A DNA stretch of 44,173 nucleotides from contig CAVHJW010000001.1 in assembly GCA_963636335.1 (NCBI GenBank), positions 1 to 44,173 on the forward strand, given 5' to 3'. Shown here piece after piece: positions 1,570 to 39,271 of the stretch (positions within the stretch are counted from its first letter, which is position 1; each line of letters begins with the position of its first letter). The stretch comes from a bacterium. GTDB taxonomy: Bacteria; Verrucomicrobiota; Kiritimatiellia; RFP12; UBA1067. Position numbers and translations under genes: made by a program. The notes under the pieces were generated by a model. It did no database searches and was not told the origin of the DNA. It saw only the letters and a program-made list of their open reading frames with translations.

Positions 1570-2626
1570 AGAAGGTGTCAAAGTCGCGCGTCGTGATGTC
1601 GCTTGCGATGTCCGTGCGCGGTCGTGCGCAAGCGTTCAAGAGGTCGCGGCATTGGCCGCAGTTTCGGCAGTGGCTCGCGTCGGGGCAGTCGCGCACCGCG
1701 GGCCAAAGCGGTGAGGCCCCGAGCGCATCGTTGTCAATGATCATTGGAAACGTAAAGCACGGATCCATGATTTCGGCAAGGTCGCCCGCGTGGTGGTAGG
1801 TCGCGTAGGCTCGAATCACTTTCTCGGGGGCGGGATGCCGCCGCGTCGCGAGTTTGATGATATCGACGTGTTGTTCGACGCGCGGGAGGTCTTCGGGGCG
1901 AATCCAGATGGCGCGCAGAAAGTCCTCATAGCGGCCGCGTGCGTAGTTCGTCTTGCATCGGAAGACGCTAAAATTGAAGGCCGCGCCCGCGGCGGACTGG
2001 CCTATGCGGTCGTGCCCATGGAGGTTGTTATGAAACTGGTGGAAGGGGCAGTCACGCAGACAACCGACATTCGCCTGAAGACCGACCCTCTTGCCTCGCG
2101 CGTGTGCCCAGGCGGCGATGCGCGCGACGTAGTCAACCTGGCGGTGTTTGTTTCGCCCCACGTAGAACGCATCATAGAGCTCGTCAATGTAGGAGAGCGC
2201 GATCTCGCTTTCAATGTCCATGTTAATGGAGAGGCGAATCTTGACGGTGGGGAAGCGTGCGCGGACGACGGTCGCAATGAAGGGCGAGGTCGTTGTGAGA
2301 TGCTCAGGAAAGAGCCCCACGGCGTCCATCTCGCGCAGAACCTCCGTCACGTGGTCGGCGAGCGTTTCGGAAATTGCAATGTCGCCGTAGCAGTTCGCGT
2401 TGAAGATCGTATCAAGTTCAACACCGTGCGCGCGCGCCCAGCGGAGGTCGGCGAGAAGATGCTCGCGGCGCGATGGCGTCCAATCGTCCATCGGGCGGCT
2501 CGCCTTGACGCCCGGCCAGGCGAAGAAGACTTCTTTTATTCGAGGGAGGAAGTCTTCGCAGGATGTGATGAAGGAGCGGTTATCAAACCAGCCGACGGCG
2601 AGCGTTCTTCTTGTTGTCGGTTCCAT
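1559..2626 (-). CDS. hypothetical protein, weakly peptidase-U32-like TIM-barrel with a C-terminal Cys cluster
   Basis: This is a long ORF with normal amino-acid composition. I chose the start at MEPTT (ATG at comp 2626), 10 nt downstream of a TATGGTATAAT box, because the tracked start at 2716 would leave no promoter space before the divergent gene at 2724. The C-terminus carries CPDASHCRNCGQC. The family assignment is from memory of overall U32 layout only. Confidence 0.45.
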   Translation of the reverse strand: MEPTTRRTLAVGWFDNRSFITSCEDFLPRIKEVFFAWPGVKASRPMDDWTPSRREHLLADLRWARAHGVELDTIFNANCYGDIAISETLADHVTEVLREMDAVGLFPEHLTTTSPFIATVVRARFPTVKIRLSINMDIESEIALSYIDELYDAFYVGRNKHRQVDYVARIAAWAHARGKRVGLQANVGCLRDCPFHQFHNNLHGHDRIGQSAAGAAFNFSVFRCKTNYARGRYEDFLRAIWIRPEDLPRVEQHVDIIKLATRRHPAPEKVIRAYATYHHAGDLAEIMDPCFTFPMIIDNDALGASPLWPAVRDCPDASHCRNCGQCRDLLNACARPRTDIASDITTRDFDTFFKG

Positions 2627-2636
2627 ATCGGCTTTC

Positions 2637-2647
2637 ATTATACCATA
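2637..2647 (-). promoter_or_regulatory. extended -10 promoter TATGGTATAAT (minus strand)
   Basis: The reverse complement of 2637-2647 is TATGGTATAAT. The ATG at comp 2626 lies 10 nt downstream with no Shine-Dalgarno sequence. Confidence 0.55.
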
Positions 2648-2675
2648 AATTCTCACTCCACAAGTTGGCGCGATT

Positions 2676-2686
2676 TGTGTTATACT
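2676..2686 (+). promoter_or_regulatory. candidate extended -10 promoter (TGTGTTATACT) for the antiporter operon
   Basis: TGT + TATACT at 2678-2686, lying 37 nt upstream of the ATG at 2724 in the divergent intergenic region. Confidence 0.4.
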
Positions 2687-2723
2687 ATTAGAATATTCAA
2701 CAAACGAAAGAATCATTCTCTAA

Positions 2724-5090
2724 ATGAAAAACAGAAAGTTGTTTTTGGTGGTCGCCACAATTTTGTGTGCGGCGGGTGTTTTTGCTTCTCATGACGCAGG
2801 GCCGCCGGCCTATCCGAACTTCGGTATGCCGCGTGTTGAGGAGATGATGTTCCTGGTTCTTCAGATTGGTGTCATCATTTTTGCCGCGCGTCTCGGCGGT
2901 GCCATCGCCTCGCTCTTCAAACTTCCTTCCATCCTCGGCGAACTCGCGGCTGGTATCGTGATCGGTCCGTGGGCCTTGGGCGGCATCGGCTTTGGCGACG
3001 GGCTCTTTAAGTATGGTCTCTTCAACGGCGGCGCGCTGAAGGCGATGAATGCTGTTGCGTACGTGGCCGAGGGCGTGGCGGGTCCCGCGCGCGAGATGTT
3101 CGGTACGGTCGCGGGCAATGGCAATATGTTCGACGCGACAAGCCCTGCGCTCTATGGCATCGCGACGCTCGCGTCGGTGATTCTCTTGTTCCTCTCGGGT
3201 CTTGAGACGAACTTGAAACTCTTCATCCGCTACTCGTTCGTCGGCCTCATGGTCGGCCTCGGTGGCGTCATCGTCTCGTTCCTCTTTGGCGACCTCTGCG
3301 CGGTTTACTTGCTGCCTGAATACTTTGATCACTTCGCCTACCTGAAGGATCTGCCACTTGCGGCGGCGATGACGAAGGAGGCCCCGCTCTATATGGGCAT
3401 CATGTCAACGGCGACGTCGGTCGGCATCACGGCGCGCATTCTCTCTGAGAAGAAGCAAATGGACTCGGAGGAAGGCGTGACGATTATGGCGGGCGCGGTG
3501 ATCGATGACGTCTTGGGTCTCATTGTTCTTGCGATTGGTAACGGCATCATCGTTGCCAATCACGCGGCAACGGCCTCGGGTGCCGAGGGCGGCGCGATGG
3601 ATTGGGGCGCGATCGGTCTTGTTGCGTTGAAGGCGTTCGGCGTCTGGCTCGGCGCGACGGTGATTGGCCTGCTCGCGGCACGCTACATCGCGAAGTTCCT
3701 GAAGGCGGCCTTTAAGAGCCCGGTCGTGATTGCGACGATGGCCTTCGGTCTTGCGCTTGTTCTTGCGGGCTTCTTCGAGTTCATGGGGCTTGCGATGATT
3801 ATCGGCGCGTATGTGATGGGTCTTGCGCTCTCGCGCACAGATTTGAAGCACCCGATTCAGGAGATGCTGACCCCCGTCTACACGTTCCTCGTGCCAATCT
3901 TCTTCTGCTCGATGGGTATGATGGTCGACGTCTCCGCACTTTGCTCAAAGCCCGTTCTCATCTTCGGTAGCATCTACACCGTGCTCGCTGTGATGGCGAA
4001 GGTGCTCGGCTGTATGGTTCCGTCGCTCTGCTGTGGCTTTAACTTCCTCGGCGGTCTGCGCGTCGGCGCGGGCATGGTGCCGCGTGGCGAAGTCGCCCTC
4101 ATCGTGGCGGGCCTCGGCCTTTCAAGTGGCTTCTTGACTCAGGAAATCTTCGGCATCGGCATTTTGATGACGCTCATCACGACCATCGTCGCGCCGCCCG
4201 CGCTCGTCGGTCTTTTCACGCCCAAGGCGCGCGGTGTTCGCCACCCGAAGCAGAGTCACAACAATTCGCGCCCTGTCACATTTGAACTCTCATCAAACGA
4301 TGTGGCCGAGCTCATGCTTGAAAAACTCGTTGCCGAGTTCCGTAACGAGGGCTTTTACACGTCGCTCCTCTCCAAGGAGGATAGCATCTGGGAGATCGCG
4401 ATGGATGACATGGAGCTTTCGGTTCGCCGCGACAAGAACGTGATTGAGGTTTCGTGCACGCCCGCCGAGGAAGCGATTGTGATGACGGCGTGGATGGAGG
4501 TCGCCTCCGAGATGAATGACCTCGCGCGCCAGATTTCAAAGCCGATCCGTCGCACGGATGTGAACAAGATTCTCTCCGACGAGGCTGCCGCGAAGAGCCG
4601 CGCCTCGGGTGGCGTGGGGCGCATCTTGCAGAACTTCGTCATGGTGCCGAACTTCCGCGCCGCGACGAAGAAGGAGGCCTTTGAGCGCCTCATCACCGAG
4701 ATCGCGGCGGCGCATCCGAACGCGCTCCATAACACGGCCGATGCGCTGTCGGCCGTCTTGCGTCGCGAGGAGTCGATGCCGACGGGTCTCGACCATGGTA
4801 TCGCCGTTCCGCACGGGCGCACGGCCTCGGTGGACGGCATCATCGGCGCGGTCGCGGTCATTGACAATTCTGACCCCGAGAAGGGGTGCTTGTCCGATTA
4901 TGAGACGATTGACAATTCGCCCGTCTCAATCCTCGTTCTGACACTCGCCAACGATGGCACACAGACGCCGTACCTTCAGCTCATGAGCTTCATCTCAAAG
5001 GCCTTGCGTGCGAATGGCGGCTATCTGCGGCTCGCGAAGTGCAAGACGGCCGATGAGATGCGTCGCTATTTCCGCGAGGTGAAGGGTTGA
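2724..5090 (+). CDS. CPA2 (Kef/NapA-type) cation:proton antiporter fused to a C-terminal PTS EIIA-2 (PtsN-like) domain
   Basis: About 500 aa are multi-pass membrane domain with Na_H_exchanger-like segments (for example MVPRGEVALIVAG). The C-terminal roughly 160 aa read REESMPTGLDHGIAVPHGR...IDNSPVSILVLTLANDGTQTPYLQLMSFISKAL, which is near-collinear with E. coli PtsN (REKMGSTGIGNGIAIPHGK...IDNQPVDLLFALLVPADQTKTHL). Confidence 0.8.
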   Translation: MKNRKLFLVVATILCAAGVFASHDAGPPAYPNFGMPRVEEMMFLVLQIGVIIFAARLGGAIASLFKLPSILGELAAGIVIGPWALGGIGFGDGLFKYGLFNGGALKAMNAVAYVAEGVAGPAREMFGTVAGNGNMFDATSPALYGIATLASVILLFLSGLETNLKLFIRYSFVGLMVGLGGVIVSFLFGDLCAVYLLPEYFDHFAYLKDLPLAAAMTKEAPLYMGIMSTATSVGITARILSEKKQMDSEEGVTIMAGAVIDDVLGLIVLAIGNGIIVANHAATASGAEGGAMDWGAIGLVALKAFGVWLGATVIGLLAARYIAKFLKAAFKSPVVIATMAFGLALVLAGFFEFMGLAMIIGAYVMGLALSRTDLKHPIQEMLTPVYTFLVPIFFCSMGMMVDVSALCSKPVLIFGSIYTVLAVMAKVLGCMVPSLCCGFNFLGGLRVGAGMVPRGEVALIVAGLGLSSGFLTQEIFGIGILMTLITTIVAPPALVGLFTPKARGVRHPKQSHNNSRPVTFELSSNDVAELMLEKLVAEFRNEGFYTSLLSKEDSIWEIAMDDMELSVRRDKNVIEVSCTPAEEAIVMTAWMEVASEMNDLARQISKPIRRTDVNKILSDEAAAKSRASGGVGRILQNFVMVPNFRAATKKEAFERLITEIAAAHPNALHNTADALSAVLRREESMPTGLDHGIAVPHGRTASVDGIIGAVAVIDNSDPEKGCLSDYETIDNSPVSILVLTLANDGTQTPYLQLMSFISKALRANGGYLRLAKCKTADEMRRYFREVKG

Positions 5091-7463: not shown

Positions 7464-7474
7464 TATGGTATAAT
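7464..7474 (+). promoter_or_regulatory. extended -10 promoter TATGGTATAAT
   Basis: Exact 11-mer. The ATG at 7488 lies 13 nt downstream with no Shine-Dalgarno sequence. Confidence 0.55.
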
Positions 7475-7487
7475 GTCTTAGAACCCT

Positions 7488-9191
7488 ATGAAAGACATTC
7501 TCATCATTCTCTTGACTGTTCTCGGTGGCCTTGGCATCTTCCTTCTCGGTATGAAGCATCTCTCCGAGGGTCTTCAGGCGGCGGCGGGGGGCGGACTTCG
7601 CAAGTTTATGTCAAAGGCGACAAGCCACCGCCTTGTCGGCGTTGGCTCGGGCATCATCTCAACGATCCTCGTGCAGTCGTCGTCCATCATCACGGTGATG
7701 CTTGTCGGTTTCGTCTCAACGGCGATTATGACGTTGCCGCAGGCGTTCGCCGTCCTCATCGGCGCGAACATCGGCACGACGGCGACGATCTGGATCATCG
7801 CCTACGCGCCCGACCCGCAGATGCTCGGCTTTATCGGCCTTGCGACGGGCGGCATCATGTATTTCTTCTTCCGCGGCGAGCGCGTCCACCACCTCGGCCT
7901 CACGATCATTGGGCTTGGGCTCGTTTTCCTTGGTCTTTACTTCATGTCGAAGGGCGTCGCGCCCATTAAGCAGAACCCAGCCTTCGCCGAGGTCTTCACG
8001 AAGATGAACGCGAACGCGATGCTCGATGTCTGCCTCATTGCGCTCACGGCGACGCTCGTGACGGCGATCATCCAGAGCTCCGCCGCGACGATTGCGATTG
8101 CGATGGCCATGGCGACGCAGGGGCTTATCACTTACGAAGTCGCGATTGCGGTTCTCTTCGGTGCGAACATCGGCACGACGGCGACAGGTTGGATTGCCGC
8201 AATCGGCGGCACGGCGGACGCGAAGCGCACGGCGATGTCGCACACACTCTCAAACCTCTTTGGTAGCGCGATCCTCATTTGGTTCTTCCCACTCTTCGTC
8301 AAAGTGGGTCAGGTCTGTTTTCCAAATTGGAACGTTGCCGAGACGATGACCGTCTCCGGCAAGAGCGTCCAGGCCTTCACGCACATGATGGCGCCGATCG
8401 CCGTGACGGATACAATCTTTGCCGTCTGCCGTGGGCTTATTTTCTTCCCGATTGTGAAGCCGTTCTGCCGCCTCGTTGAGTGGATCATCAAGCAACCCGA
8501 GAACGAGAAGCCACACCTTTCCTGTCTCAAGGTCGGCGTGAAGATTTCGCCCGTCATCGCCTGCGACCAAGCGCTCTGCGAGGTCGACTTCATGAAGCAG
8601 TCCAACCTTGAACTTCTCAACTGCGCGCGTAAGGTTCTTTCTGGCGCAACGGCGAATGACGAAGGCCCTGAAAAGCACATTATTCATCGCGAGGATATTC
8701 TTGATAATGTTCAGCATGAAGTGACGGAATTCTTGGGCGCGATTATGTCAAAGCGCCTCGCGTGGGATGTGGCGGAGCGTGCCCGTCGTCTTTTGCGTCT
8801 CACGGATGAGCTGGAGTCGGTCTCCGACGAATGCGCGCAGGTATTGAAAGTCGTGAAGCGGTTGCGCCGGAATGGGCAGAAGATTTCCAGTGTGTCGGAG
8901 GCGCTTCTTCTCGATGTCCATGATCGCACGGCTGCATTCGCCATTGAGGTGACGCCGCTTATTTGCTCGCCGCGTGTTCCTTTTAATCTTGAATCTCTTC
9001 AAAAGAAGTCGTCAGATCTTCACGAGTTTATTCGCGAGTGTCGTCAAGCGCAACTCGGCCGTGTTGGACCCGAAGATCCCGGCTCGGCCGTGCGCGTCTT
9101 GGGCGAACTGGACATCATCAATGCTTACGAACGCATCCGCGCCTATTACCTCAACTGCGCAGAAGTCTTGGCCGGCGGCAAGCGTCTTTAG
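7488..9191 (+). CDS. Na+/phosphate cotransporter family protein (NptA-like) with C-terminal PhoU-like region
   Basis: GGLGIFLLGMKHLSEGLQ and the repeated GANIGTTAT motifs are typical of Na/Pi cotransporter II-related proteins. The C-terminal roughly 200 aa are soluble and helical. Confidence 0.8.
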   Translation: MKDILIILLTVLGGLGIFLLGMKHLSEGLQAAAGGGLRKFMSKATSHRLVGVGSGIISTILVQSSSIITVMLVGFVSTAIMTLPQAFAVLIGANIGTTATIWIIAYAPDPQMLGFIGLATGGIMYFFFRGERVHHLGLTIIGLGLVFLGLYFMSKGVAPIKQNPAFAEVFTKMNANAMLDVCLIALTATLVTAIIQSSAATIAIAMAMATQGLITYEVAIAVLFGANIGTTATGWIAAIGGTADAKRTAMSHTLSNLFGSAILIWFFPLFVKVGQVCFPNWNVAETMTVSGKSVQAFTHMMAPIAVTDTIFAVCRGLIFFPIVKPFCRLVEWIIKQPENEKPHLSCLKVGVKISPVIACDQALCEVDFMKQSNLELLNCARKVLSGATANDEGPEKHIIHREDILDNVQHEVTEFLGAIMSKRLAWDVAERARRLLRLTDELESVSDECAQVLKVVKRLRRNGQKISSVSEALLLDVHDRTAAFAIEVTPLICSPRVPFNLESLQKKSSDLHEFIRECRQAQLGRVGPEDPGSAVRVLGELDIINAYERIRAYYLNCAEVLAGGKRL

Positions 9192-9236
9192 TTAAGGTGG
9201 CCAACGCCTTTAGTCAACATGCGGGCACGTGCCTGT

Positions 9237-9270
9237 AAATTCAGGCGTGTCACGCCTGAATTTTTTTGTG
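9237..9270 (+). terminator. Rho-independent terminator
   Basis: AAATTCAGGCG / CGCCTGAATTT inverted repeat, followed directly by TTTTTGTGGCTTTTTT. Confidence 0.8.
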
Positions 9271-9297
9271 GCTTTTTTATTTTCTTCTCGCAAATGT

Positions 9298-9308
9298 TGT
9301 GGTATAAT
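9298..9308 (+). promoter_or_regulatory. extended -10 promoter TGTGGTATAAT
   Basis: TGG + TATAAT. The ATG at 9318 lies 9 nt downstream with no Shine-Dalgarno sequence. Confidence 0.55.
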
Positions 9309-9317
9309 TTGCGGCAT

Positions 9318-12300
9318 ATGAAAAACGCTATTCAGTCAATTCTCCTTGTTGTTCTTACCTTTGCACTTTGCGCTGTTTTTTGGCGAATACTTGCGTTTAA
9401 CGCAAAGAATGAGTGCAATGTCTTGACGGGTCGCCCGCCGGCGGCGCGTGTGGCAGAGACGAATGCGCAGTCGGTTGTCATAAATAATCCATCTGAGAAA
9501 CAAGAGAGTACGATTCTTTCAGGGCATGAGAGGCGCTCACCCACGGTTGAATCGACGCCACAACCTGGAAGGGTTCGGGAGATTGAGTTTGTTGATGATG
9601 AGACGTGCCCCGAGATTCGAATTGATCTTGATCGCGAACCGAAGCAAGATGGAATCCTTCAGTCGGTGACAATTGAACCTGCGGTTGAGAATCTTTCCGT
9701 CAAGGTTGGAGATTTTTCGGATTCTTCGTATGGGTGGCCGTGGCGCGTTAGCCTTGCGAGCCCCAACTTTCTCTTTCGCACGAATTATCTTGTCACGGTC
9801 AAGAGCACATTTCCGTTTGCAGACGGAACAACGCTTTCCAACGAGGTTCGTCGCACCTTTTGTCGGCGAGATCTCGATACGTGCGTCCGTTTTGCCGACT
9901 TTGGCCGCTATCTCCCATCGTTTGGCGCGCGCGAACTTGCGCTCAATCTTGTGAACGTGACGAACATTGACTGCGCGGTTGCGTCTGTCTTGCCTGAGAA
10001 TGTTGTTCAACTTCTGGCGCGTGAGGAAGATGTTTATACGGATGTCTACCGCGTCCGCGCCGACAGCCGAGCCACGTTTGATCTTGCGAAAGCCCCAACA
10101 TGCTGGAGTGAGCGTGTGGACCTTGCGGTCAACACGCCTGAAAAACGCGTGTTGCGACTTGGCGCGGAACAGGGCGTCGTCTCGAATGGTATTTATCTCG
10201 TTTCCGTTCGCGACTCAAACTGCAAGAGCGAATATTTGTGGCGCATGCGAAACATGTTTGATTATCGCCTTGTTTGCGTCACCGATCTCGCACTTTCTCT
10301 TCGTAAAGATTCAAAGAGTCTTCGCCTTTGGGTGACTTCGCTTTCGGCGGGGCGCCCCCTTGCGGGCCTGGATGTGCGCCTCTACGCCGCAAGCCGAGCC
10401 TGCCTGGCGACGGGCGAAACAAACGAAGAGGGCGAATTTGTTTTCTCGTCATGGGATGCGCGTGAGATCCCGTTCGCCGTCGTCGTCTCGAAAAAGGACG
10501 GCTCGGATGCGACCTTTATGGCTCTTCGCTCGTCCATGGAGATTGACGAGACGCTCACAAGTGGGGGGCGCAAAAATTACCTTGATGTTGGCGAGGCACA
10601 AGCCTTCATTTGGTCAGATCGTGGCATCTACCGCCCGGGCGAGCGAATGATGGTTCACGCGCTCTTGCGCGATCACGCGATTTCTGCTCCCACCTCGTTT
10701 CCTGTTGTTGTCTCGCTCGTGAAGCCTGATGGCAAGACGCTCGTCTCAAAGACGTGCCGCGCGGATGCGTTCGGCTCGCTTGTCGTTGACGACTTTGTTT
10801 TCCCCGTTGACCAACCGACGGGGAAGTGGCGCGTCAAGCTTGCCATTCCTGGTGAATGCGGCGAGGTGCTTGGGTCGCGCGTTGTGAAGGTTGAGGATTT
10901 TGTCCCGCCGCTCGTGCGTGTCTCGGTTGAGGATTTGCCCGATATGTCTCTTCACGCAACGAATCTTCAGTGGCGCGTCAAGGCGGAGAATCTCTACGGA
11001 GGCCCTGCAACACTCTTGAAGGCAGAAAGTCGCGTTGTTTTCACGGACGCACCGTTTGCGCCAACTGCTTTTTCAGCGTTTCGTTTTGGAGATGCGGAGT
11101 TGGGCTTAAAACCTAACCAAACGGAACTTGCCTCCACGAAGACAGATGAGCGCGGTGAGGCGACTTTTGCGTGCTCCTTTAATGAGGCGTGGGGGGCGCC
11201 GAAGGCCGCGATGCGTCTTCTCGTGCAAGGCGCGGTCGTGGAGGCGAATGGACGCGCTGCGTATGCTCGCGCGAGTGCCATTGTTCATCGCTATCCGTAT
11301 TACATTGGCTCAGATGTTCCGAAGCAAATCGTCAAGGCGCCGGGCGCGCGAGAAATTCGCGTTGTTTTGGTGAACCCGGATGGCACGCTTCACACAGAGG
11401 CGCGCGAACTCAAGGTTGAACTTTTGAAGATTGATTATGTCCACAATCTTCGTTCGCGCAACGGCTCGCTCGCGTGGGAATCCACGCGCGTGACGCGGCG
11501 CGTACCTTGCGCGGAATCCGTCCAGATTGCGGCGAATGGCGAGGGGACTTTTGCGCTTCCAATTTCGGGGCAAGGCGATTATGAACTTGTTCTCTCAGAC
11601 GAGGCGCGCGGCCTTTCGCACCGCGCCGCGTTTTGGATTTCGGATACGGCAGACGAAGAGGTTCATACATCGCTTGAAAATCCCGCGCGTGTCCTCATCA
11701 TGCCCGACAAGAACGTCTATCGTGAGGGTGATCGGCCGCGCCTGACAATTAAAGCGCCATTCCCGGGCGCGGCGTATCTGACCGTGATGCGTGAAAACGT
11801 TCTTTCAACGCGTGTTCTCATGTTGACGAATGCAACGAGTGTCGTTGAATTGGAGAGTCTAGATGCGGCGTGGGCGCCGAATGTGGATGTCGCGGTGAGC
11901 GTTGTGCGTGCCATCAAGGCGACAAATGGCGCGTTCACATCGCGCGCGCATGGCATCGCCGCCCTCGCCATTCGTCCGCGTCGAGCCGAAATTCCTGTCA
12001 CGCTTGCGGCGGTCGCAACGCCTTCTTCGGAAGGGGGCTCGACCCTTGATGTGAACATCTCGGCCGTCGGTGCCGATCGTGTTTGCCTCACCGTTGTTGA
12101 CGAGGGCGTCCATCTTCTGACGACTGAACCCGTGCCGAATCCAATTGCCACGTTTGCCATTCTTCGTGAAGGCTGTCATCCGCTCTATGATCTCTTTAGC
12201 CGTGTTTTGCCCGTCTATGATGGCACATTGAAGGCGATCGGCGCGAAGACGGGTGGCGGAAGCGCGGCGGATCTCTTTAATCGCGTGAGCCCTGTCCCAA

Positions 12301-14341: not shown

Positions 14342-14350
14342 TGATATACT
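14342..14350 (+). promoter_or_regulatory. candidate extended -10 promoter (TGATATACT) for the ppdK operon
   Basis: TGn + TATACT in the 132-nt intergenic region, about 60 nt upstream of ppdK. This one has a leader and an AAAGAG Shine-Dalgarno-like element. Confidence 0.4.
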
Positions 14351-21738: not shown

Positions 21739-21764
21739 CGCGCCACCCCTCGGCGCGACTTTTT
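21739..21764 (+). terminator. weak candidate Rho-independent terminator
   Basis: CGCGCC / GGCGCG stem with a 7-nt loop, followed by ACTTTTT, immediately after the methyltransferase stop codon. Confidence 0.35.
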
Positions 21765-21792: not shown

Positions 21793-21803
21793 TATGGTAT
21801 AAT
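21793..21803 (+). promoter_or_regulatory. extended -10 promoter TATGGTATAAT
   Basis: Exact 11-mer. The etfB ATG at 21812 lies 8 nt downstream of the hexamer with no Shine-Dalgarno sequence. Confidence 0.6.
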
Positions 21804-22609: not shown

Positions 22610-22638
22610 AAACTCAAAACGTCTAACGGACAATCGCT

Positions 22639-23688: not shown

Positions 23689-23692
23689 GACC

Positions 23693-25420: not shown

Positions 25421-25433
25421 GGGAGAAAAAGTC

Positions 25434-26264: not shown

Positions 26265-26285
26265 AGACTTTCAAGGAGAAGAGAC

Positions 26286-28671: not shown

Positions 28672-29341
28672 GACGGTCATCGTGACGGGGTCAAGCCGCG
28701 GCATCGGCAAGGCGATTGCCGAGACGCTACGCGCCGACGGTTATTCGGTTGTCACGCACTCGGTGAAGTCGGGCGGCACCGACCTCGTCTTCGATGTCGC
28801 CGACCGCGCGGCGGCGAAGGCGGCGTTGGACGCGTTCGTGGCCGAGCACGGCGCACCCTATGGCATCGTTCTTAACGCGGGTATTGCCGATGACAATGCG
28901 TTCCCCGCGATGGAGGATGCGCAGTGGGATCGCGTCCTTCGGACGGACCTTGACGGGTTTTACAATGTCCTAAAGCCTCTCGTCCTGCCTATGGTCCAAG
29001 CGCGACAGGGCGGGCGCATCGTCGTCATCTCGTCAATCTCGGGCGTGATTGGCAATCGCGGCCAGACGAACTATGCGGCCGCGAAGGCGGGGCTTATTGG
29101 CGCGGCGAAGTCGCTCGCGGTGGAGCTCGCGCGCCGTCGGATCACGGTCAACTGCATCGCGCCGGGCGTTGTTGAGACGGAGATGATTGAGGGCGTCTTT
29201 GCCGAGGAGGTCTTAAAGGCGATCCCGATGCGGCGCTTTGGTCGCCCCGAGGAGGTCGCGGGGGCGGTTCGTTATTTTCTTTCTGATGAGGCCGCTTATG
29301 TGACGCGGCAGGTCTTGAATGTGAACGGAGGGATGTTCTGA
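28664..29341 (+). CDS. 3-oxoacyl-ACP reductase (SDR, FabG/ApeQ-like)
   Basis: TGSSRGIG, NAG and the catalytic S...YAAAK (NYAAAKAG). An alternative TTG start lies at 28655. Confidence 0.85.
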   Translation: MNKTVIVTGSSRGIGKAIAETLRADGYSVVTHSVKSGGTDLVFDVADRAAAKAALDAFVAEHGAPYGIVLNAGIADDNAFPAMEDAQWDRVLRTDLDGFYNVLKPLVLPMVQARQGGRIVVISSISGVIGNRGQTNYAAAKAGLIGAAKSLAVELARRRITVNCIAPGVVETEMIEGVFAEEVLKAIPMRRFGRPEEVAGAVRYFLSDEAAYVTRQVLNVNGGMF

Positions 29342-29342
29342 A

Positions 29343-30566
29343 ATGAGGCGCGTCGTTGTCACGGGAATGGGAATTGTCAGTTCGCTCGGCCATGATGTCG
29401 CGACGGCCTTTGAGCACCTTCAGACAAAGAAAAATTGTGTTGAGGTCTCGGCGGATCTCATGACCTATAAGGGGCTTCAGACGCACCTCTGGGCACCCGC
29501 AAAATGGACGCGCCCCGCGCGCTATACACGTAAGATTGTGCGCACGATGAGCCCTGTTTCGGAAATGGCGCTCGATGCGACCGAGCAGGCCATCGCTCAG
29601 GCCGGGCTTACCGATTCGCCCATTCTCAAGGCGGGTCGTTGCGGCGTTGCTTACGGCTCGTGCTCGGGTGGCGTTGAGGCGAACGCCGACTTCTTCTCGA
29701 TTCTCATGAACCGCGAGGTGCGGAACGTGACGAGCTCAACCTACATCAAGATGATGCCGCAGACCTGCGCCGTGAATCTCTCCGTTCATTTCGGGACAAC
29801 GGGGCGACTTTTGCCGACGGGAACGGCGTGCACGTCGGGTTCGCTCGCAATCGGCGAGGCGTGCGAGGCCATTCGCTTCGGTCAGCAGGATGTCATGATC
29901 GCGGGCGGCGCGGAGGAGTTTTCCGTCACACAGGTCGCCGTCTTTGATACGCTCTTTGCAACGTCGCGTTGTAATGAAACACCCGAGGCCACGCCGCGTG
30001 CGTTTGATTCAAGCCGTGACGGGCTTGTGATTGGCGAGGGCGCGGCGACGCTCATCTTGGAGGAGCGTGACCATGCGCTTGCGCGTGGCGCGACCATTCT
30101 CGCGGAGGTTGCGGGTTTTGGTACAAACACCGATGGACGCCACGTCACCCAGCCGAATGCCGAGACGATGGCGGCGGCCTTGCGCCTTGCGCTTCAGGAT
30201 GCGGTCCTCTCGCCGGAGGCGATTGGCTACGTCAATGCGCACGGCACGGCGACCGATCGAGGCGATGTCGCAGAAGGGACGGCGATGGCGACCGTCTTTG
30301 GCGCCTCGCGCCCCGCCGTGAGCACGATTAAAAACTACACGGGGCATACGCTCGGCGCGTGTGGTGCGATTGAGGCCATCATGACGATTGAAATGATGCG
30401 CCACGGTCTTTTCGCCCCGAACCTCAACCTTGTCACGCCCGACCCCGCCTGCGGTGAGCACGACTTTATTATGGGCGATATGCGGCATCTTGAAACCGAG
30501 TATGTGATGAGCAACAATTTTGCCTTCGGTGGCATCAACACCTCGCTTGTTTTTCGTCGCACATGA
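29343..30566 (+). CDS. beta-ketoacyl-ACP synthase (FabF/FabB-like, ApeR-like position; Cys-His-His intact)
   Basis: GTACTSGS (Cys codon 29829-29831), NAHGTAT, TGHTLGACG and the C-terminal NNFAFGGINTSLVF. Confidence 0.85.
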   Translation: MRRVVVTGMGIVSSLGHDVATAFEHLQTKKNCVEVSADLMTYKGLQTHLWAPAKWTRPARYTRKIVRTMSPVSEMALDATEQAIAQAGLTDSPILKAGRCGVAYGSCSGGVEANADFFSILMNREVRNVTSSTYIKMMPQTCAVNLSVHFGTTGRLLPTGTACTSGSLAIGEACEAIRFGQQDVMIAGGAEEFSVTQVAVFDTLFATSRCNETPEATPRAFDSSRDGLVIGEGAATLILEERDHALARGATILAEVAGFGTNTDGRHVTQPNAETMAAALRLALQDAVLSPEAIGYVNAHGTATDRGDVAEGTAMATVFGASRPAVSTIKNYTGHTLGACGAIEAIMTIEMMRHGLFAPNLNLVTPDPACGEHDFIMGDMRHLETEYVMSNNFAFGGINTSLVFRRT

Positions 30567-31027
30567 AAAAAGCTCGTCTACTCGGCATGCGGCGCGTTCA
30601 GTCGCTCAACGAGGCGGATGTCTCGTTCGTGCCGCCGCTTTTGCGTCGTCGCCTCTCGCCTCTGCAACGGATTTTCTTCTTTCTCGCGCACTTTGACGAG
30701 ACGCTGCCGACACCGAAGCGCGTTGTCTTCGCAAGTCGCGACGGCGAAGATACGCTCACGCGCCGCACGGTTGAAGATTTTCATACGGATGGCACCGCCT
30801 CACCGCATCGCTTCAGCGCGTCTGTCTATAACGCCGCGCCTGGGCTTTGGAGCGTCTTTACGAAGAACATCGCGCCTTACACGTCTGTTGCCGCCGGGCG
30901 TGAAACCGTTCGCGTCGGCCTTTTGGAGGCGCTTCTCCCCGCCGAGACGCCGACCCTGTTTGTCTACGCTGAAGAAACGGATGGCGGGCACGGCTTCTCT
31001 TGTCTCTATGGCTTCGACGGCGATTAG
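30563..31027 (+). CDS. chain-length-factor-like protein (Ketoacyl-synt_2 / ApeC-like, no active-site Cys)
   Basis: 154 aa. LLRRRLSPLQR, VFASRDGE, SPHRFSASVYNAAPG and LFVYAEE follow the pattern of the short KS N-terminal-domain proteins that partner with KS in aryl-polyene-type clusters. ATGA overlap with the upstream KS. Confidence 0.65.
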   Translation: MKKARLLGMRRVQSLNEADVSFVPPLLRRRLSPLQRIFFFLAHFDETLPTPKRVVFASRDGEDTLTRRTVEDFHTDGTASPHRFSASVYNAAPGLWSVFTKNIAPYTSVAAGRETVRVGLLEALLPAETPTLFVYAEETDGGHGFSCLYGFDGD

Positions 31028-31736
31028 GCTTCTGCGCGGCTCTCTTGCGGTCCTCTTCGGCTTTGCCTTCGCCGTGGGCGCGATTCTTCTTTCGCCGCTC
31101 ATGCTCGTTTTCTCGCGCCCCGAAGGCGCCCAGCCGCTCGTTCGCGCCATTTGGCGACCGCTCGTGTGGCTTTTTGAGAAAACGCGCCTCATTCGCGTCG
31201 TGCGCGGCGATGTTGAAAGCCCACACGGCGCGATCATCGTCGCGAATCACCCCTCGCTCATTGATGTTGTCCTTTTTGTCGCGCTTTTTCCAAAGACGCT
31301 TTATGTTGCGAAGTCGCCTCTTCGCTCAAGTTTCGCCCTTGGGCGCATCGTCCGCGCGACCTCGCTTTTTGATGACGCGCGTCTTCTTGATGAGGCGCGG
31401 CCCTATCTTGAGCACGGTTGGAATATCCTTATTTTTCCCGAGGGGACGCGCTCGCCAAAGGAAGGGCTTCATTCCTTCCGGCGCGGCGCGGCGCAACTCG
31501 CCCTCCGCACGGGCGCGCCGCTTGTTGCGATGGGTCTTTGTCTCTCGCGCCGTATTCTTGCGAAGGGACAGCCGCTCTTTGACATGGGCGAAAAGACGGT
31601 CGTCTATTCGTTTCACGCGCGCGCGCCGTTTCGCGCCGAGGTGAGACCTGGAGAGAGCGCGCACGCGGCGGCGGTACGTGTCACGCGTGATCTTGAAGAG
31701 GCGATCGCCCTGAATCTTCAGAAGGACAGTGAGTAA
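31008..31736 (+). CDS. lysophospholipid / 1-acyl-sn-glycerol-3-phosphate acyltransferase family (LPLAT, ApeD-like position)
   Basis: HX4D motif NHPSLID (31248-31265), FPEGTRS, and an N-terminal TM segment. I chose the ATG at 31008. The tracked 30618 start is Arg-rich shadow over the CLF gene. Confidence 0.75.
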   Translation: MASTAIRLLRGSLAVLFGFAFAVGAILLSPLMLVFSRPEGAQPLVRAIWRPLVWLFEKTRLIRVVRGDVESPHGAIIVANHPSLIDVVLFVALFPKTLYVAKSPLRSSFALGRIVRATSLFDDARLLDEARPYLEHGWNILIFPEGTRSPKEGLHSFRRGAAQLALRTGAPLVAMGLCLSRRILAKGQPLFDMGEKTVVYSFHARAPFRAEVRPGESAHAAAVRVTRDLEEAIALNLQKDSE

Positions 31737-31771
31737 CCGAGTAATATTCGATAATGAAGGGGGAATCAAAA

Positions 31772-32536
31772 ATGGAACAGGGCTCTCGAGGCGAGTATGA
31801 TTTTAGGGTGCGCACATACGAGTGCGGACCCGATGGCGTTGCGACATTACCGACCCTTTGCAATTATTTGCAGGAAGCAGCCAGTATGAATGCGGAGGCG
31901 TTGGCTTTCTCGCGCACAAACTTTATGGCGGAGGGTGAGAATATCTCGTGGGTGTTGACGCGCTTGCGCGTTTGCATGACGCGCTATCCGAAATGGGAGG
32001 AGACTGTGCATGTTGTCACGTGGCCGAGCGGTGGGCGGCGCGTGGCTGCGACGCGCGAGTTTAGGCTCTGCGACGACACGGGCGCGCAAATCGGTGTGGC
32101 GACGAGCGAGTGGATGCTCATTGATCTTGCGACGCGCCGCATCGTGCCTATCCCCGAAACGGTTCTTGCCCTTGCGCAGGGATCTACGCGCGTGCTCGAA
32201 GACGCGCCCTTTACAAAATTGCGCTGGACCTGCACGGAGACGACATCTGACGCGCAGACGTTTCGCGCACGCCGCAGCGACATTGACCTCAACGGCCATG
32301 TCAACAACGTTCATTATGTTTCATGGCTTCTTGAGACGGTGCCCGCAGGCTTTTGCACGGATTTTGAAATCGTCTATCGCTCCGAGACGCGGGTCGGCGA
32401 AATCGTGCGTGCGGAGAGCGTGGAGGTTGAGCCTCACGTCTTCGTGCATCGCCTTTCCGATTCCACCGGCCACGATCACGTTCTCGCTTGTACGCGCTTC
32501 GCGAGCGAGCCGACACGTTTATCGGATCGTTCATAG
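31772..32536 (+). CDS. acyl-ACP thioesterase (FatA/FatB-type double hotdog)
   Basis: YDFRVRTYECGPDGVATLPTLCNYLQEAA and DIDLNGHVNNVHY are typical of the Acyl-ACP_TE family. The ATG at 31772 follows an AGGGGGA Shine-Dalgarno sequence, and the ATG at 31754 is an alternative start. Confidence 0.75.
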   Translation: MEQGSRGEYDFRVRTYECGPDGVATLPTLCNYLQEAASMNAEALAFSRTNFMAEGENISWVLTRLRVCMTRYPKWEETVHVVTWPSGGRRVAATREFRLCDDTGAQIGVATSEWMLIDLATRRIVPIPETVLALAQGSTRVLEDAPFTKLRWTCTETTSDAQTFRARRSDIDLNGHVNNVHYVSWLLETVPAGFCTDFEIVYRSETRVGEIVRAESVEVEPHVFVHRLSDSTGHDHVLACTRFASEPTRLSDRS

Positions 32537-32537
32537 G

Positions 32538-32548
32538 TGTGGTATAAT
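32538..32548 (+). promoter_or_regulatory. extended -10 promoter TGTGGTATAAT
   Basis: TGG + TATAAT starting 2 nt after the thioesterase stop codon. The ruvA ATG at 32557 lies 8 nt downstream. Confidence 0.5.
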
Positions 32549-32556: not shown

Positions 32557-33150
32557 ATGATTTCATTTATCCGAGGAATTTTGGTCGAAAAGACACCGAC
32601 AAGCGCGATTCTTGATGCGTCGGGGGTTGGCTATGAACTCCTCATTCCCATCTCAACTTACGAGAAACTTCCGCGCGAGGGGGAGGAGGCTAAACTTCTC
32701 ACCGCGCATATCGTGCGCGAGGATGATGAGATCCTCTTTGGGTTTGCGACGGCGAATGAGCGCGAGATGTTCAGGAAACTAATTGGGGTTTCTGGTGTGG
32801 GGCCGCGCACGGCCCTTGCGATTCTCTCGGGCGTCTCGGCGGGCGAACTTGCGCTTGCGATTGCCGCGGGCGACGCGAAGAGACTTTCCGCCGTGAAGGG
32901 TGTCGGCAAGAAAACGGCCGAGAAGATTTGCATTGAACTAAAAGACAAGGTCTCAAAACTGGAAGCGCAGGCTCTCGGCTCATCGCTGAAGCCCGAGCGT
33001 CAGGCTGTTGTCGCCGACACGATTGCTGCCTTGCGCGCGCTCGGCTTCAACGAGGAGACGTGTTCAAAGATGGTCGCCGATGTTCTCGCGAAGCATCCTG
33101 AGGTGGAGGATGTTGAGAAGGCGATTCGCCTGGCGCTGTCAAGTCGGTAG
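32557..33150 (+). CDS. ruvA: Holliday junction DNA helicase RuvA
   Basis: MISFIRGILVEK...GVGYEL, and the helix-hairpin-helix pair LIGVSGVGPRTALAILS / LSAVKGVGKKTAEKI. Confidence 0.9.
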   Translation: MISFIRGILVEKTPTSAILDASGVGYELLIPISTYEKLPREGEEAKLLTAHIVREDDEILFGFATANEREMFRKLIGVSGVGPRTALAILSGVSAGELALAIAAGDAKRLSAVKGVGKKTAEKICIELKDKVSKLEAQALGSSLKPERQAVVADTIAALRALGFNEETCSKMVADVLAKHPEVEDVEKAIRLALSSR

Positions 33151-35419: not shown

Positions 35420-37125
35420 ATGGAGACATCATTCGAGACCGTTGTTGAGATTTTGGAACGCAACGCGCGCGAGTGGCCGAACGACGTCGCGCTCGTTGAG
35501 ATCAATCCGCAAGAGCTGGAAGCGCACCATACGACATGGCGCGAATATTCGCTCATTGAGAGTTCTTCCATTGAGGCGTTTCGGAGCGAGATGACATGGC
35601 GCGCATTCGATGAGAAGGCGAATCGCTTTGCGAATCTCCTTTTGAGCCGCGGCTTCAAGAAGGGCGAGAAGGTCGCGATTCTCCTCATGAATGGCTTGGA
35701 GTGGTTGCCGATTTACTTCGGCATTTTGAAGGCGGGCTGTATGGCTGTGCCGCTCAACTTCCGCTACACGGCCGACGAGATCAAGTATTGCCTCGAGCTT
35801 TCGGATGCGCAAGCCCTCGTCTTTGGGCCTGAGTTTATTGGTCGCGTTGAGCAGATTATTGACCTCGTGCCGGCCGTTAAGACGCGTTTCTATGTGGGCG
35901 ATGACTGCCCCTCGTTCGCTGATTCCTACCAGACGCTTCTTTCCTATTGCTCGTCTAAGGCACCCGCGATTCCGATGACGACGGATGACGAGGCGGCTAT
36001 CTACTTTTCGTCGGGGACTACGGGCTTCCCGAAAGCGATCGTCCTTCAGCACCACTGCCTTGTCCATGCCTGCAAGGTTGAGCAAGATCACCACGGCCAG
36101 ACGAAGGACGACACGTTCCTCTGCATTCCGCCACTCTATCATACGGGCGCGAAGATGCACTGGTTTGGCTCGTTGCTCGTGGGTGGCCGCGCCGTTCTCC
36201 TAAAGGGTGTCAAGCCCGAGTGGATTTTGCGTGCGGTCTCGGAGGAACGTTGCACGATTGTTTGGCTGCTCGTTCCTTGGGCGCAAGACATCTTGGACGC
36301 CATTGAGCGCGGTGATGTGAACCTCGCAGACTTCCGCCTTGCGCAGTGGCGGCTTATGCATATCGGTGCGCAGCCTGTTCCGCCCGCGCTCATCAAGAGG
36401 TGGAAGACGGTCTTTCCTCATCACGACTACGACACGAACTACGGGCTTTCGGAGTCGACGGGTCCGGGAGCCGTTCACCTGGGCGTTGAGAACATTGACC
36501 ACGTTGGCGCGATTGGCGTTCCCGGCTACGGTTGGCAGACAAAGATTGTGGGCTCAGACGGCATCACGCCCGTCGAGGACGGCAAGGTGGGTGAACTTGC
36601 GCTCAAAGGCCCAGGCGTCATGAAGGAATATTATAAGAACCCGCAGGCGACGGCCGAAATTATGAAGGAGCCCGGGTGGCTCTTGACGGGCGACATGGCG
36701 GAAAAGCGCGATGGTTTCATTTACCTCGTTGATCGCGCGAAAGATGTCATCATCTCGGGTGGCGAGAATCTTTACCCCGTTCAGATTGAAGACTTCATTC
36801 GCGCACATCCCGCGGTGAAGGATGTTGCGGTCATCGGCCTACCTGACAAGCGCATCCCGCGGTGAAGGATGTTGCGGTCATCGGCCTACCTGACAAGCGA
36901 CTCGGTGAAATCGCGACGGCGATTGTCTCGGTGAAGGATGGCGCGACGCTCGACGAGGCGCAGTTGCAGACGTTCTGTTTGGGGCTGCCGCGCTACAAGA
37001 GACCGCGCAAAATCATCTTCGCAGAGGTGCCGCGCAACCCGACGGGCAAAATTGAGAAGCCGCGCCTCCGCAAAATGTATGGCGCGGAGACCCTCGTCGC
37101 CCAGCAGAACGGCATTGAGGTCTAA
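35420..37125 (+). pseudogene. AMP-dependent acyl-CoA/aryl-CoA ligase interrupted by a 47-bp tandem duplication (frameshift)
   Basis: Motifs YFSSGTTGFPKAI (A3), NYGLSES (A5), LTGDM (A7) and VDRAKDVIISGGENLYP (A8) lie in ORF 35420-36865. The remaining C-terminus, including PRNPTGKIEK (A10 Lys), lies in ORF 36862-37125 in another frame. Deleting one 47-bp copy yields a continuous 552-codon ORF reading ...GLPDKRLGEIATAIV.... Confidence 0.8.
36805..36898 (+). repeat. perfect 47-bp direct tandem duplication (2 copies)
   Basis: 36805-36851 and 36852-36898 are both CATCCCGCGGTGAAGGATGTTGCGGTCATCGGCCTACCTGACAAGCG, verified base by base. Confidence 0.95.
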
Positions 37126-37150
37126 CGAATCAGGGCAACATTCGGCCGAA

Positions 37151-37161
37151 TATGGTATAAT
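37151..37161 (+). promoter_or_regulatory. extended -10 promoter TATGGTATAAT
   Basis: Exact 11-mer. The ATG at 37172 lies 10 nt downstream with no Shine-Dalgarno sequence. Confidence 0.6.
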
Positions 37162-37171
37162 ACGATACAAT

Positions 37172-39271
37172 ATGGACAAGCAGAATCTCTATCTCGGTAT
37201 CGACATTGGCTCGACGACGTTCAAGGCTGTTCTTCTCGCGGGCGATGGCACTGTCCTTCGCACCGTCTACAAGCGGACGCAGCCCGTTGAGGCGGGCAAG
37301 GTCGCGTGCACGGGGCACTGTCATGCGTGTGGCGCGTGCAGCGGCGGGTCGGTGAAGCGTCTCGCGCTTGAGTTCCTGAAGGTTGCGGGCATCGCATCTT
37401 TCTCGGATCTCTCGTCTTTTGTCGTGACGGGTAGCCAGATTGTTGAGGACACAAAGAAATTCTTGCCTTTCGACTTTCAGGTGAGTGAGGTGACCGCGCA
37501 CGTTGCGGGCGCAAAGTTCCTTCATCCCGATGTTGATGCCATTATTGACTGCGGCGGTCAGGACTCAAAGTGCATGGTCTACAATCCGCCGATGAACCTC
37601 TGGACGAGCATGATGAGCGGCGTCTGCGCGGCGGGAACGGGCAGTTTCCTCGACTCGGTGGCGCAGAAGCTCGGCGTCCGAATTGAGGATGTCGCCGACC
37701 GTGTCAACTACGACTCAAAGACTGAATTCAGTTCCGTCTGCGCCGTCCTCTCGGCGACGTCGATCAACAAGTTTAAGAACCGCGTGCCGCTCGGTGATCT
37801 CTTGGCCGGCGCGTGCAAGGCGCAGGCGCGCACGATTCTTAACTCGGTTGGTCAGCTCCTCTTGAATGCTCCAGGTCGCAAGATTCTCTTTCAGGGCGGC
37901 GTTGCGTTCAACAAGGCCGTTGCTTACTTCCTCGGCAAACTGACGGGCAGCGAGATTATTATTCCGCAGTATCACGAGGTGATGGGCGCACTCGGCGCGG
38001 CCGTCATTGCGCGCCAACTTCATGACCTCAAGGTGTCGGGTCATCTGAATCTTGAGAAGGTTGACTACGAGCCGACGCGCGGGAAGTCCGTTCTTCTGCG
38101 CATCAAGTCGACGAAGCACGACTTCTTCTCGAAGGACGAAACGAAGCCGCTCGTTTGGCGCAATCTCTTCTTCCCGACTGAAATCCTGAATGCGATGGAC
38201 TGCCGCGTGCGCACGCTTGAGACCTACGCCGCGCTCTTTGGTCGCCGCGCCGACAAGGTGAAGGAGGCTCTCGGGCGCGCCGCGCAGAAGGGCTTCGACG
38301 GGCAGACGTGTTCGTTTTTGCGTATGCTTGAAGGTATGGATCTCGAGAAGCCTGACTTCATCGTCTCAACCGTTCAGCCGTGTCAGCAGGCCGAGCGTGT
38401 TTTCGCCGATCTCGCGCGCGAATACAAAATTGAGGATCGTCTCTACTCGTTGCAGACGCCGATCAACGCACACTCGCGCAACGCCGTGGAGGTGATGGCC
38501 GACGGGCTTGCCGAGTCTGTCTTTGAGATGGAGAAGGCCTTTGGGCGCAAGATGGATCCAGGTCGACTTGAAGAGGCGTGCGTCCTTTCAAACGAGGCCG
38601 CCGCGCTTGCGAAGAAGTGTCAGGAATTGCGCTTCACATCCCCGCCGCTCGTGCGCGGGAGCGAGGCGATTTACAACGCTATCGTCTTCTCGCAGCTCTG
38701 GGGGCGCCAAGATCTCGTGGATATCCAGAAGGCCTACTACGAGGAACTTCTGATGAAGAAGGAGTGGGCCGAGAAGCGCTACAAAATGGGTGACACGCAC
38801 CGCCTCCTCTGGCTTCACCTGCCACCGTTCTACGATACGCGCCACCTTGACTTTATTGAGACGACGTGCAATGCGCCGATCGTCTTCGAAGAGACGAACT
38901 TCGTCGGCTGGGAGCCGCTTGACCCGAAAGATCCCTACCGCTCGCTCGCGAAGAAGCTCCTTCAGTCAGGCTTTCTCGACCCCGCGCTGCGCGTTGAGTA
39001 CGTCAAGCGCGCCATTCCAGCGGGTCAGTTCAATGGCGTCATCCTCTACACACACGGCTTTGGTCGCTGCTCGCTTGCCGACCGCGCGCTCTCCAAGCAT
39101 CTGCGCGAGGAGCTTGATGCGATCCATGTGCCGCTTCTCACGCTTGAGGGCGACTGCATGGATGCGTCGATCGACCCGTGCTCAACAACGACGAAGATTG
39201 CTTCGTTCGCGGAGGCGCTGAACCTAAACCGTTACGGGAATATCTTCGGCAAACTCAACGAGAAGAAATGA
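37172..39271 (+). CDS. fusion of a BcrAD/BadFG-type (HgdC-like) ATPase activase with a 2-hydroxyacyl-CoA dehydratase (HGD-D) domain
   Basis: The N-terminal half has LGIDIGSTTFKAV, DCGGQDSKC, VCAAGTGSFLD and SSVCAVLSATS, collinear with HgdC including its two cluster Cys. The C-terminal half has QTCSFLR, QPCQQAE, TTCNAPIV, GFGRCS and LEGDCMD, which is HGD-D-like. I chose the start at 37172. The tracked 36938 start is an Arg-rich overlap with the ligase gene. Confidence 0.8.
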   Translation: MDKQNLYLGIDIGSTTFKAVLLAGDGTVLRTVYKRTQPVEAGKVACTGHCHACGACSGGSVKRLALEFLKVAGIASFSDLSSFVVTGSQIVEDTKKFLPFDFQVSEVTAHVAGAKFLHPDVDAIIDCGGQDSKCMVYNPPMNLWTSMMSGVCAAGTGSFLDSVAQKLGVRIEDVADRVNYDSKTEFSSVCAVLSATSINKFKNRVPLGDLLAGACKAQARTILNSVGQLLLNAPGRKILFQGGVAFNKAVAYFLGKLTGSEIIIPQYHEVMGALGAAVIARQLHDLKVSGHLNLEKVDYEPTRGKSVLLRIKSTKHDFFSKDETKPLVWRNLFFPTEILNAMDCRVRTLETYAALFGRRADKVKEALGRAAQKGFDGQTCSFLRMLEGMDLEKPDFIVSTVQPCQQAERVFADLAREYKIEDRLYSLQTPINAHSRNAVEVMADGLAESVFEMEKAFGRKMDPGRLEEACVLSNEAAALAKKCQELRFTSPPLVRGSEAIYNAIVFSQLWGRQDLVDIQKAYYEELLMKKEWAEKRYKMGDTHRLLWLHLPPFYDTRHLDFIETTCNAPIVFEETNFVGWEPLDPKDPYRSLAKKLLQSGFLDPALRVEYVKRAIPAGQFNGVILYTHGFGRCSLADRALSKHLREELDAIHVPLLTLEGDCMDASIDPCSTTTKIASFAEALNLNRYGNIFGKLNEKK

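Follow-up and report, generated by a model that had tools for sequence, protein, structure and literature searches.

Extended -10 boxes close to operon-first start codons and the case for leaderless or near-leaderless transcripts in a gut Kiritimatiellia genome

Introduction

The DNA considered here, referred to as the window, is a stretch of 44,173 nucleotides (nt) comprising positions 1 to 44,173 of contig CAVHJW010000001.1 in assembly GCA_963636335.1. This assembly is a gut/rumen metagenome-assembled genome (MAG) of the class Kiritimatiellia in the phylum Verrucomicrobiota, and it amounts to 1.45 Mb in 143 contigs with 58% G+C and 82% completeness. The window holds exactly six copies of the 9-mer TGGTATAAT, where 0.02 would be expected and where none of 100 dinucleotide-preserving shuffles reaches six. 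An earlier note on this DNA had read these copies as extended -10 promoter boxes lying 8-13 nt before operon-initial ATG codons, and had concluded that the transcripts behind them are leaderless or near-leaderless. In this report we describe the six sites and their genes, follow the box through the genome and through related genomes, and weigh how closely transcription may start to the initiation codon.

Six boxes and their genes in the window

The six boxes, the genes that they lead and the other features of the window are collected in Table 1. A recount of the sites agreed with the earlier note in position, strand and distance to the next ATG, and also in that four of the six sites are the same exact 11-mer, TATGGTATAAT, the other two being TGTGGTATAAT. 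Each of the six boxes points to the ATG of a long open reading frame (ORF), and five of the six encoded proteins have a Pfam match. Position 1 of the RuvA_N profile falls on residue 1 of its protein and position 1 of the BcrAD_BadFG profile on residue 8, and thus those two starts are supported by their domains. It had also been claimed that the boxes correct four starts placed too far upstream on the ORF track. The over-extension itself was found again, but the rule of taking the first start after a stop yields only three such ORFs, namely 1559-2716 on the minus strand, 9219-14276, which crosses a terminator hairpin, and 36938-39271. The suspicion that copies inside genes had been overlooked proved unfounded, as there is no exact intragenic copy in the window.

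Two of the boxes follow closely on terminator-like hairpins. The first hairpin closes the unit of the Na/Pi cotransporter 37 nt 5' of box 3, and the second stands directly after the stop codon at 21738 and 38 nt 5' of box 4, behind which the gene of EtfB opens a long run of plus-strand genes ending at 32536. Box 5 begins 2 nt past the stop codon of the gene before it (32534-32548) and has no terminator in between, so that its upstream promoter DNA lies within that gene. The sequence AGAGGGA between box 5 and ruvA, regarded earlier as a possible Shine-Dalgarno (SD) sequence, is a weak one with a duplex energy of -5.2 kcal/mol. The other plus-strand units of the window are headed by copies with one mismatch, at 25-33, 2678-2686 and 14342-14350. 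A standard -35/-10 scanner reported none of the six window sites, which means that no -35 match is present there. A search of the window with Rfam matched no RNA family, so within it the boxes do not belong to any known riboswitch or small RNA.

Table 1. Promoter boxes, the genes behind them and terminator-like hairpins in the window, in order of position (aa, amino acids).
Feature	Position	Strand	9-mer TGGTATAAT	Description
Gene behind box 1	1559-2626	-		355 aa; without Pfam match; anti-SD duplex at the start -2.9 kcal/mol
Box 1	2637..2647	-	2637-2645	TATGGTATAAT, extended -10; 10-nt spacer gaaagccgat to ATG 2626-2624
Variant box	2678..2686	+		TGTTATACT, divergent from box 1; 37 nt 5' of ATG 2724; leadered
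Gene behind variant box	2724-5090	+		788 aa
Box 2	7464..7474	+	7466-7474	TATGGTATAAT; 13-nt spacer (longest) to ATG 7488
Gene behind box 2	7488-9191	+		Na/Pi cotransporter, 567 aa
Terminator-like hairpin and T-run	9237..9263	+		12-pair stem AAATTCAGGCGTGTCACGCCTGAATTT then TTTTTGTGG
Box 3	9298..9308	+	9300-9308	TGTGGTATAAT; 9-nt spacer to ATG 9318
Gene behind box 3	9318-14276	+		bacterial alpha-2-macroglobulin, 1652 aa
Variant extended -10 box	14342..14350	+		TGATATACT, 58 nt 5' of ppdK (14409-17057); unit leadered
Terminator-like hairpin and T-run	21739..21757	+		CGCGCCACCCCTCGGCGCG then ACTTTTTGG
Box 4	21793..21803	+	21795-21803	TATGGTATAAT; 8-nt spacer to ATG 21812 of EtfB, 265 aa
Box 5	32538..32548	+	32540-32548	TGTGGTATAAT; 8-nt spacer agagggat to ATG 32557
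Gene behind box 5	32557-33150	+		ruvA, 197 aa
Box 6	37151..37161	+	37153-37161	TATGGTATAAT; 10-nt spacer to ATG 37172
Gene behind box 6	37172-39271	+		BcrAD-type activase / HGD-D dehydratase fusion, 699 aa

The promoter box across the genome

The hexamer TATAAT occurs 361 times in the genome, and 212 of these follow TGN, with G in 147 cases, A in 39, C in 19 and T in 7; 69% of the TGNTATAAT boxes have G at -13. The 9-mer TGGTATAAT has 147 copies, none of which lies in same-strand coding sequence, and its distance to start codons peaks at 7-11 nt, a genome-wide picture that favours the earlier note. A long-ORF start is found within 15 nt of 71 copies, mostly at 7-11 nt, and another 49 stand 16-150 nt 5' of a gene in the manner of ordinary leadered promoters. 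There are 13 copies farther from genes, several of them before transfer RNA (tRNA) genes and one of them antisense within a gene, and the remaining 14 are located at contig ends.

A logo built from 140 sites carries information only at positions -18 to -6, with the consensus W-T-D-TGG-TATAAT-A. Position -17 is T in 125 of the 140 sites and position -16 is A (52), G (35) or T (53), never C, so the upstream part of the box is T-D-TGG rather than the "TA" of the original description. No -35 consensus appears in this logo, in which the best column (-36/-35) reaches 0.22 bit. Aragorn lists 37 genes for tRNA and transfer-messenger RNA (tmRNA) in the genome, and, counted from its output, a TGNTANNNT box stands 12-30 nt 5' of 20 of the approximately 27 that are first in their cluster. 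Since RNA genes are without translation signals, the boxes before them are evidence for transcription only.

The genome encodes a single RpoD, whose regions 2.4, 3.0 and 4.2 (...RIPVHMIETINKL... and ...TRERIRQIEAKALRKLRHP) read as canonical against what we take to be the corresponding residues of E. coli. The features expected of a sigma-70-type extended -10 promoter are thus found together, that is, TGnTATAAT, no -35, orientation toward genes including RNA genes, and region 3.0 of RpoD, and TGGTATAAT is almost certainly a consensus promoter of this kind. Two further candidates were set aside: an unusual sigma factor as the cause of the -35 independence, in view of the canonical look of RpoD regions 3.0 and 4.2, and a dispersed repeat or mobile element, in view of flanks that carry no information around the boxes.

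A 12-nt motif of such uniformity is unusual for the promoters of model bacteria, and one may ask whether it is a promoter at all and not some dispersed repeat, an operator for a transcription factor or an A/U-rich translation enhancer in long 5' untranslated regions. We find this scarcely credible, because nothing is conserved outside -18 to -6 and the match to TGnTATAAT is exact, because the box precedes tRNA and tmRNA genes and is strictly oriented toward genes, and because it stands at varying distances, 16 to 150 nt, from SD-led genes and terminators lie just 5' of two boxes.

Spacing, start codons and Shine-Dalgarno pairing

The distance between box and start codon is narrowly distributed. 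The number of candidate ATGs that follow the end of TATAAT by 7, 8, 9, 10 and 11 nt is 20, 23, 23, 13 and 13, or 92 altogether, against about one in total for decoy in-frame ATGs, and 110 of the 212 TGNTATAAT boxes have a long-ORF start at 3-15 nt. When the start codons 6-12 nt behind TATAAT are considered (n = 122), ATG accounts for 108 (89%) and GTG and TTG for 7 each, and the counts of TATAAT-led starts at spacers of 7, 8, 9, 10 and 11 nt are 23, 28, 27, 18 and 15. The looser pattern TANNNT is in excess by about 170 at those same positions before starts, which suggests roughly 170 leaderless-type starts among approximately 1,290 ORFs.

It could be argued that the ATGs next to the boxes are not the real starts, and that translation begins downstream behind an SD sequence while the boxes are ordinary promoters with leaders of 30-100 nt. 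For one gene of the sister box described below, that of ribosomal protein S2, the start was probably picked too far upstream. Such a misreading of the starts is nevertheless very unlikely, as an in-frame ATG falls in the 5-nt window behind TATAAT 92 times versus about once in decoys, RuvA_N begins at residue 1, and the N-termini of the Na/Pi transporter and EtfB are backed by orthologues, among which the etfB box moves with the ATG.

Use of SD sequences was measured in 279 genes with an unambiguous start by the energy of the duplex with the anti-SD, a dG of -8 or lower being counted as strong. Strong pairing is found at none of the 29 leaderless-type starts, at 29% of operon-internal genes, at 7-9% of other first genes and at 3% of decoys, which bears out the view that SD sequences are depleted at box-led starts. 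The companion claim, that internal genes of the same operons rely on SD sequences or ATGA coupling, is correct for many of them, and internal starts at 5087, 26286, 28216, 28655, 29343, 35420, 41679 and 43589 have anti-SD duplexes of -8 to -11 kcal/mol; it does not hold for several internal starts with weak duplex values. SD use is low even at operon-internal genes, with 29% strong and 36% moderate pairing versus 3-9% at decoys. First genes without a recognisable box are also SD-poor (9%), and a third mode of initiation or weaker boxes may be at work there.

The 16S gene is not assembled in this MAG, and the anti-SD tail was read from two congeners, in which it is the canonical CCUCC, GGATCACCTCCTTTCT; the SD route is therefore available although little used. 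Verrucomicrobia are listed among the "SD-scarce" organisms that retain CCUCC (PMC10783764), and in one paper Kiritimatiellae are given with 63% SD:anti-SD use.

The base before the start codon is also biased. At spacers of 8-10 nt, the ATG has a T directly before it at 44 of 66 sites (67%) versus 48 of 254 controls (19%; Fisher p = 3e-13). Cappable-seq has reported Y(-1)R(+1) as a universal signature of transcription start sites (PMC4782308), and a T before the ATG agrees with the A being the first base transcribed.

Where transcription may begin

On these grounds we hold it to be very probable that W-T-D-TGG-TATAAT-A is an extended -10 element read by the housekeeping RpoD, with the box at leaderless spacing for about half of its copies. 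In the mechanism that we propose, RpoD as the ordinary housekeeping sigma factor would read this block, and the contacts with TG and with the T at -17 would stand in for a -35, so that the 12-nt block alone positions RNA polymerase. Selection would have placed the box at a distance of 7-11 nt from the ATG of first genes, at the window sites and at about half of the copies in the genome, and the first transcribed base would be the A of that ATG or one lying 1-5 nt ahead of it. With no room left for an SD sequence, translation would follow the leaderless route, in which the ribosome together with the initiator tRNA recognises a 5'-terminal AUG, and the downstream genes of box-led units would be initiated through SD pairing or stop/start overlap. 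What we infer in this scheme is where precisely the 5' ends lie and how translation starts, on the basis of the observed motif statistics, orientation, spacing, absence of SD sequences, ATG bias, T at -1 and conservation among orthologues.

Several points weigh against a start on the ATG itself. Position 6 after the hexamer is purine-rich at spacers of 9 and 10 nt, and so is position 7 at a spacer of 9 nt, so that at spacers of 9-10 nt a conventional start with a leader of 2-4 nt is equally possible. Leaders of 1-5 nt are poorly translated by the leaderless route in E. coli. The spacers, whose modes are 7, 8 and 9 nt and which reach out to 11-13 nt, exceed the 6-8 nt of Mycobacterium (PMC6028130), and with the usual 7th base past the hexamer as the first transcribed one, most of the mRNAs would carry leaders of 1-5 nt. 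In the case of ruvA, which has no terminator 5' of its box, transcripts should also arise by read-through and have long leaders. The material adds its own weight on this side, since the MAG is only 82% complete and in 143 contigs, and the gene starts come from a crude codon-usage ORF map rather than from a trained gene finder or proteomics.

These points lead to a serious alternative, to which we give somewhat less than an even chance: the promoter is the same and starts transcription conventionally, at the 6th-8th base, leaving leaders of 1-6 nt on most of these mRNAs, among them all those with spacers of 9-13 nt and five of the six in the window, with translation still independent of SD sequences. 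The spread of spacers over 7-11 nt, the purine-rich positions 6 and 7 just mentioned and the 13-nt spacer of box 2 all speak for it, whereas the T at -1 is most enriched at exactly the spacers of 8-10 nt, as expected if the A of the ATG initiates, and the 89% share of ATG fits recognition of a 5'-terminal AUG. The purine profiles between box and ATG are compatible with a conventional start and with a start on the ATG alike.

Taken by spacer class, distances of 7-8 nt agree with the ATG's A as the first transcribed base, and distances of 9-13 nt probably give leaders of 1-6 nt unless RNA polymerase starts unusually far downstream. Box 2, having the longest spacer, is the likeliest of the boxes to have a leader, most likely one of 5-6 nt. 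That leaders at box-led genes are very short or absent can be proposed with good confidence, and the wording "leaderless or near-leaderless" in the earlier note is supported as the right hedge for these transcripts.

Conservation of the boxes among relatives

The box before ruvA recurs in related genomes. TATAAT stands 7-9 nt before the ATG or GTG of ruvA in 21 of 79 orthologue loci, usually as TG(G/A)TATAAT and with flanks that are unalignable, and several of these orthologues start with GTG behind the same box. In many other loci ruvA is internal to an operon, its ATG overlapping the upstream stop codon in ATGA coupling (…TTCGCATGA). The RuvA orthologues come nearly all from gut/rumen MAGs labelled Kiritimatiellae/Kiritimatiellia or Verrucomicrobia. 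RuvA proteins 60-80% identical are also found in records named Methanomethylophilaceae archaeon (L002), Faecalibacterium prausnitzii (L003) and Alistipes onderdonkii (L004), and likewise in records of Anaerovoracaceae (L032), Barnesiella (L042) and Faecalibacterium sp. (L043). These six are probably contigs put in the wrong bin, or else bins with a wrong label. The same promoter box precedes the RuvA genes of these six records wherever upstream sequence is present.

For etfB, all four orthologues (L117-L120, two of the same genus and two of another) have TG(G/A)TATAAT 7-10 nt before their own ATG. Those ATGs lie eight codons 5' of the start in the present genome and the N-termini are 8 residues longer (e.g., MNAKTLGR), and with the box at 7-10 nt from ATGs that differ in this way, the box follows the start codon. 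The Na/Pi transporter tells another part of the story. Its N-terminus, MK(D/E)..LTVLGGL, and its start codon recur in most of 30 congener loci, and the box before it is seen only in this genome and in L113 among the loci compared (L086-L114). The gene is operon-internal in most congeners, and judged from this comparison box 2 is a young promoter, a case of recent birth or turnover, which is no argument against its function.

On the scale of whole genomes, the 9-mer TGGTATAAT has 69-355 copies in each of 18 congeners sampled versus 0-27 for the reversed control. Of 12 genomes that belong to the order but to a different family, 10 have only 0-21 copies. We also counted the arrangement TGNTATAAT-N7-10-ATG, perfect boxes only, in 91 genomes of the class. 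The counts are 86 in this genome (reversed control 1), 35 and 55 in two other genera of the family (reversed 2 and 0), 52 and 23 in certain genomes from its order (reversed 5 and 3), and 0-6 in most other families. By these counts, perfect boxes at leaderless spacing cluster, within Kiritimatiellia, in one family and a few lineages related to it.

A second box before tRNA and translation genes

A variant of the box, TGATATACT, is present in 39 copies and differs from the main box by A for G at -13 and C for A at -8, two changes that co-vary. It precedes tRNA genes in 11 of 39 copies versus 4 of 147 for TGGTATAAT (p = 7e-6), and it is never at leaderless spacing (0 of 39 versus 71 of 147; p = 7e-10). 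Protein genes behind it include those of S1, S2, L25, RpoB and, in the window, pyruvate phosphate dikinase (ppdK). In ribosomal protein S2 the Pfam domain starts at residue 46, so the first in-frame start was probably chosen too far upstream. The copies at contig ends probably precede ribosomal RNA (rRNA), and altogether TGATATACT has the look of a promoter class that serves stable RNA and genes of the translation machinery. The sequence TTGATATACT is likewise enriched in most congeners, and one of them (G014) has 79 copies of it versus 69 of TGGTATAAT; this preference in G014 suggests that the balance of the two boxes shifts between species.

A bolder proposal is that the two boxes form a two-flavour code independent of a -35. 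In such a code TGGTATAAT would serve protein genes, about half of them leaderless, and TGATATACT would serve tRNA, probably rRNA, ribosomal-protein genes, rpoB and ppdK, always with a leader, while T(-1)A(+1) would steer the start to an ATG up to 9-11 nt from the hexamer. We put this forward as a speculation that is rather unlikely to hold. Were it true, the kind of box and the spacer length would together decide both the transcription class of a gene and its mode of translation. The divisions so far described in leaderless-rich bacteria are less sharp than this would be.

Known systems and significance

The closest known counterpart is "group C" of GeneMarkS-2, in which leaderless first genes have a Pribnow box approximately 10 nt from the start and the other genes have a ribosome binding site (RBS) (PMC6028130; see also PMC3160421). 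The share of operons with this pattern is 25-50%, and Actinobacteria and Deinococcus-Thermus often show it (PMC6028130). The present genome likewise has a -10 box at a fixed short distance from operon-first starts (spacer mode 7-9 nt), SD-poor starts with no SD sequence in between, a preference for AUG and a dual start model, and tens of percent of its transcription units are apparently affected. It differs from group C in having as its box an almost perfect extended -10 (T-D-TGG-TATAAT), with no -35, instead of a loose TANNNT, in spacers of 7-11 nt rather than the 6-8 nt of M. tuberculosis, in the weak use of SD sequences even at internal genes (29-36%) and in its lineage, Verrucomicrobiota.

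Within this phylum, Cappable-seq of Akkermansia muciniphila in the mouse gut placed approximately 10% of start sites on the annotated start codon (PMC4782308). The two organisms share phylum, gut habitat, a -10 that resembles TATAAT and the Y(-1)R(+1) pattern (PMC4782308). Unlike the experimental start sites of Akkermansia, those of the present genome are predicted from sequence alone; the leaderless share looks higher here (about half of consensus promoters) and the consensus is longer and stricter.

The TRTGnTATAAT or "-16 region" promoters of Bacillus and other Gram-positives, and the TGn promoters of E. coli, can dispense with a -35. As in the -16 region promoters, TG stands one base 5' of TATAAT with a T two bases farther 5'; unlike in them, position -16 is A, G or T and not only a purine, and the host is a Gram-negative member of the Planctomycetes-Verrucomicrobia-Chlamydiae (PVC) group. 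No discussion of leaderless genes in Kiritimatiellae was found in the searched literature that mentions Kiritimatiellae. The arrangement itself is well known, and what is new is its presence in this lineage, not a mechanism. The near-perfect extended -10, the missing -35, the somewhat longer spacers and the T at -1 are differences of degree.

For the study of these organisms the finding has practical consequences. SD-tuned gene callers will misplace starts in this lineage of Kiritimatiellia, as the over-extension of three of six window genes on a naive ORF track illustrates, and a dual promoter/RBS start model is advisable for the abundant uncultured Kiritimatiellia of rumen and gut. The 12-nt box is also a cheap and precise marker of transcription units in such MAGs, for example of the etfB run from 21812 to 32536. 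In evolutionary terms, leaderless-rich gene organisation is extended to another branch of Verrucomicrobiota, and because it is found, within a single class, mainly in one family and a few lineages, these genomes form a natural comparison set for the gain and loss of leaderless initiation.

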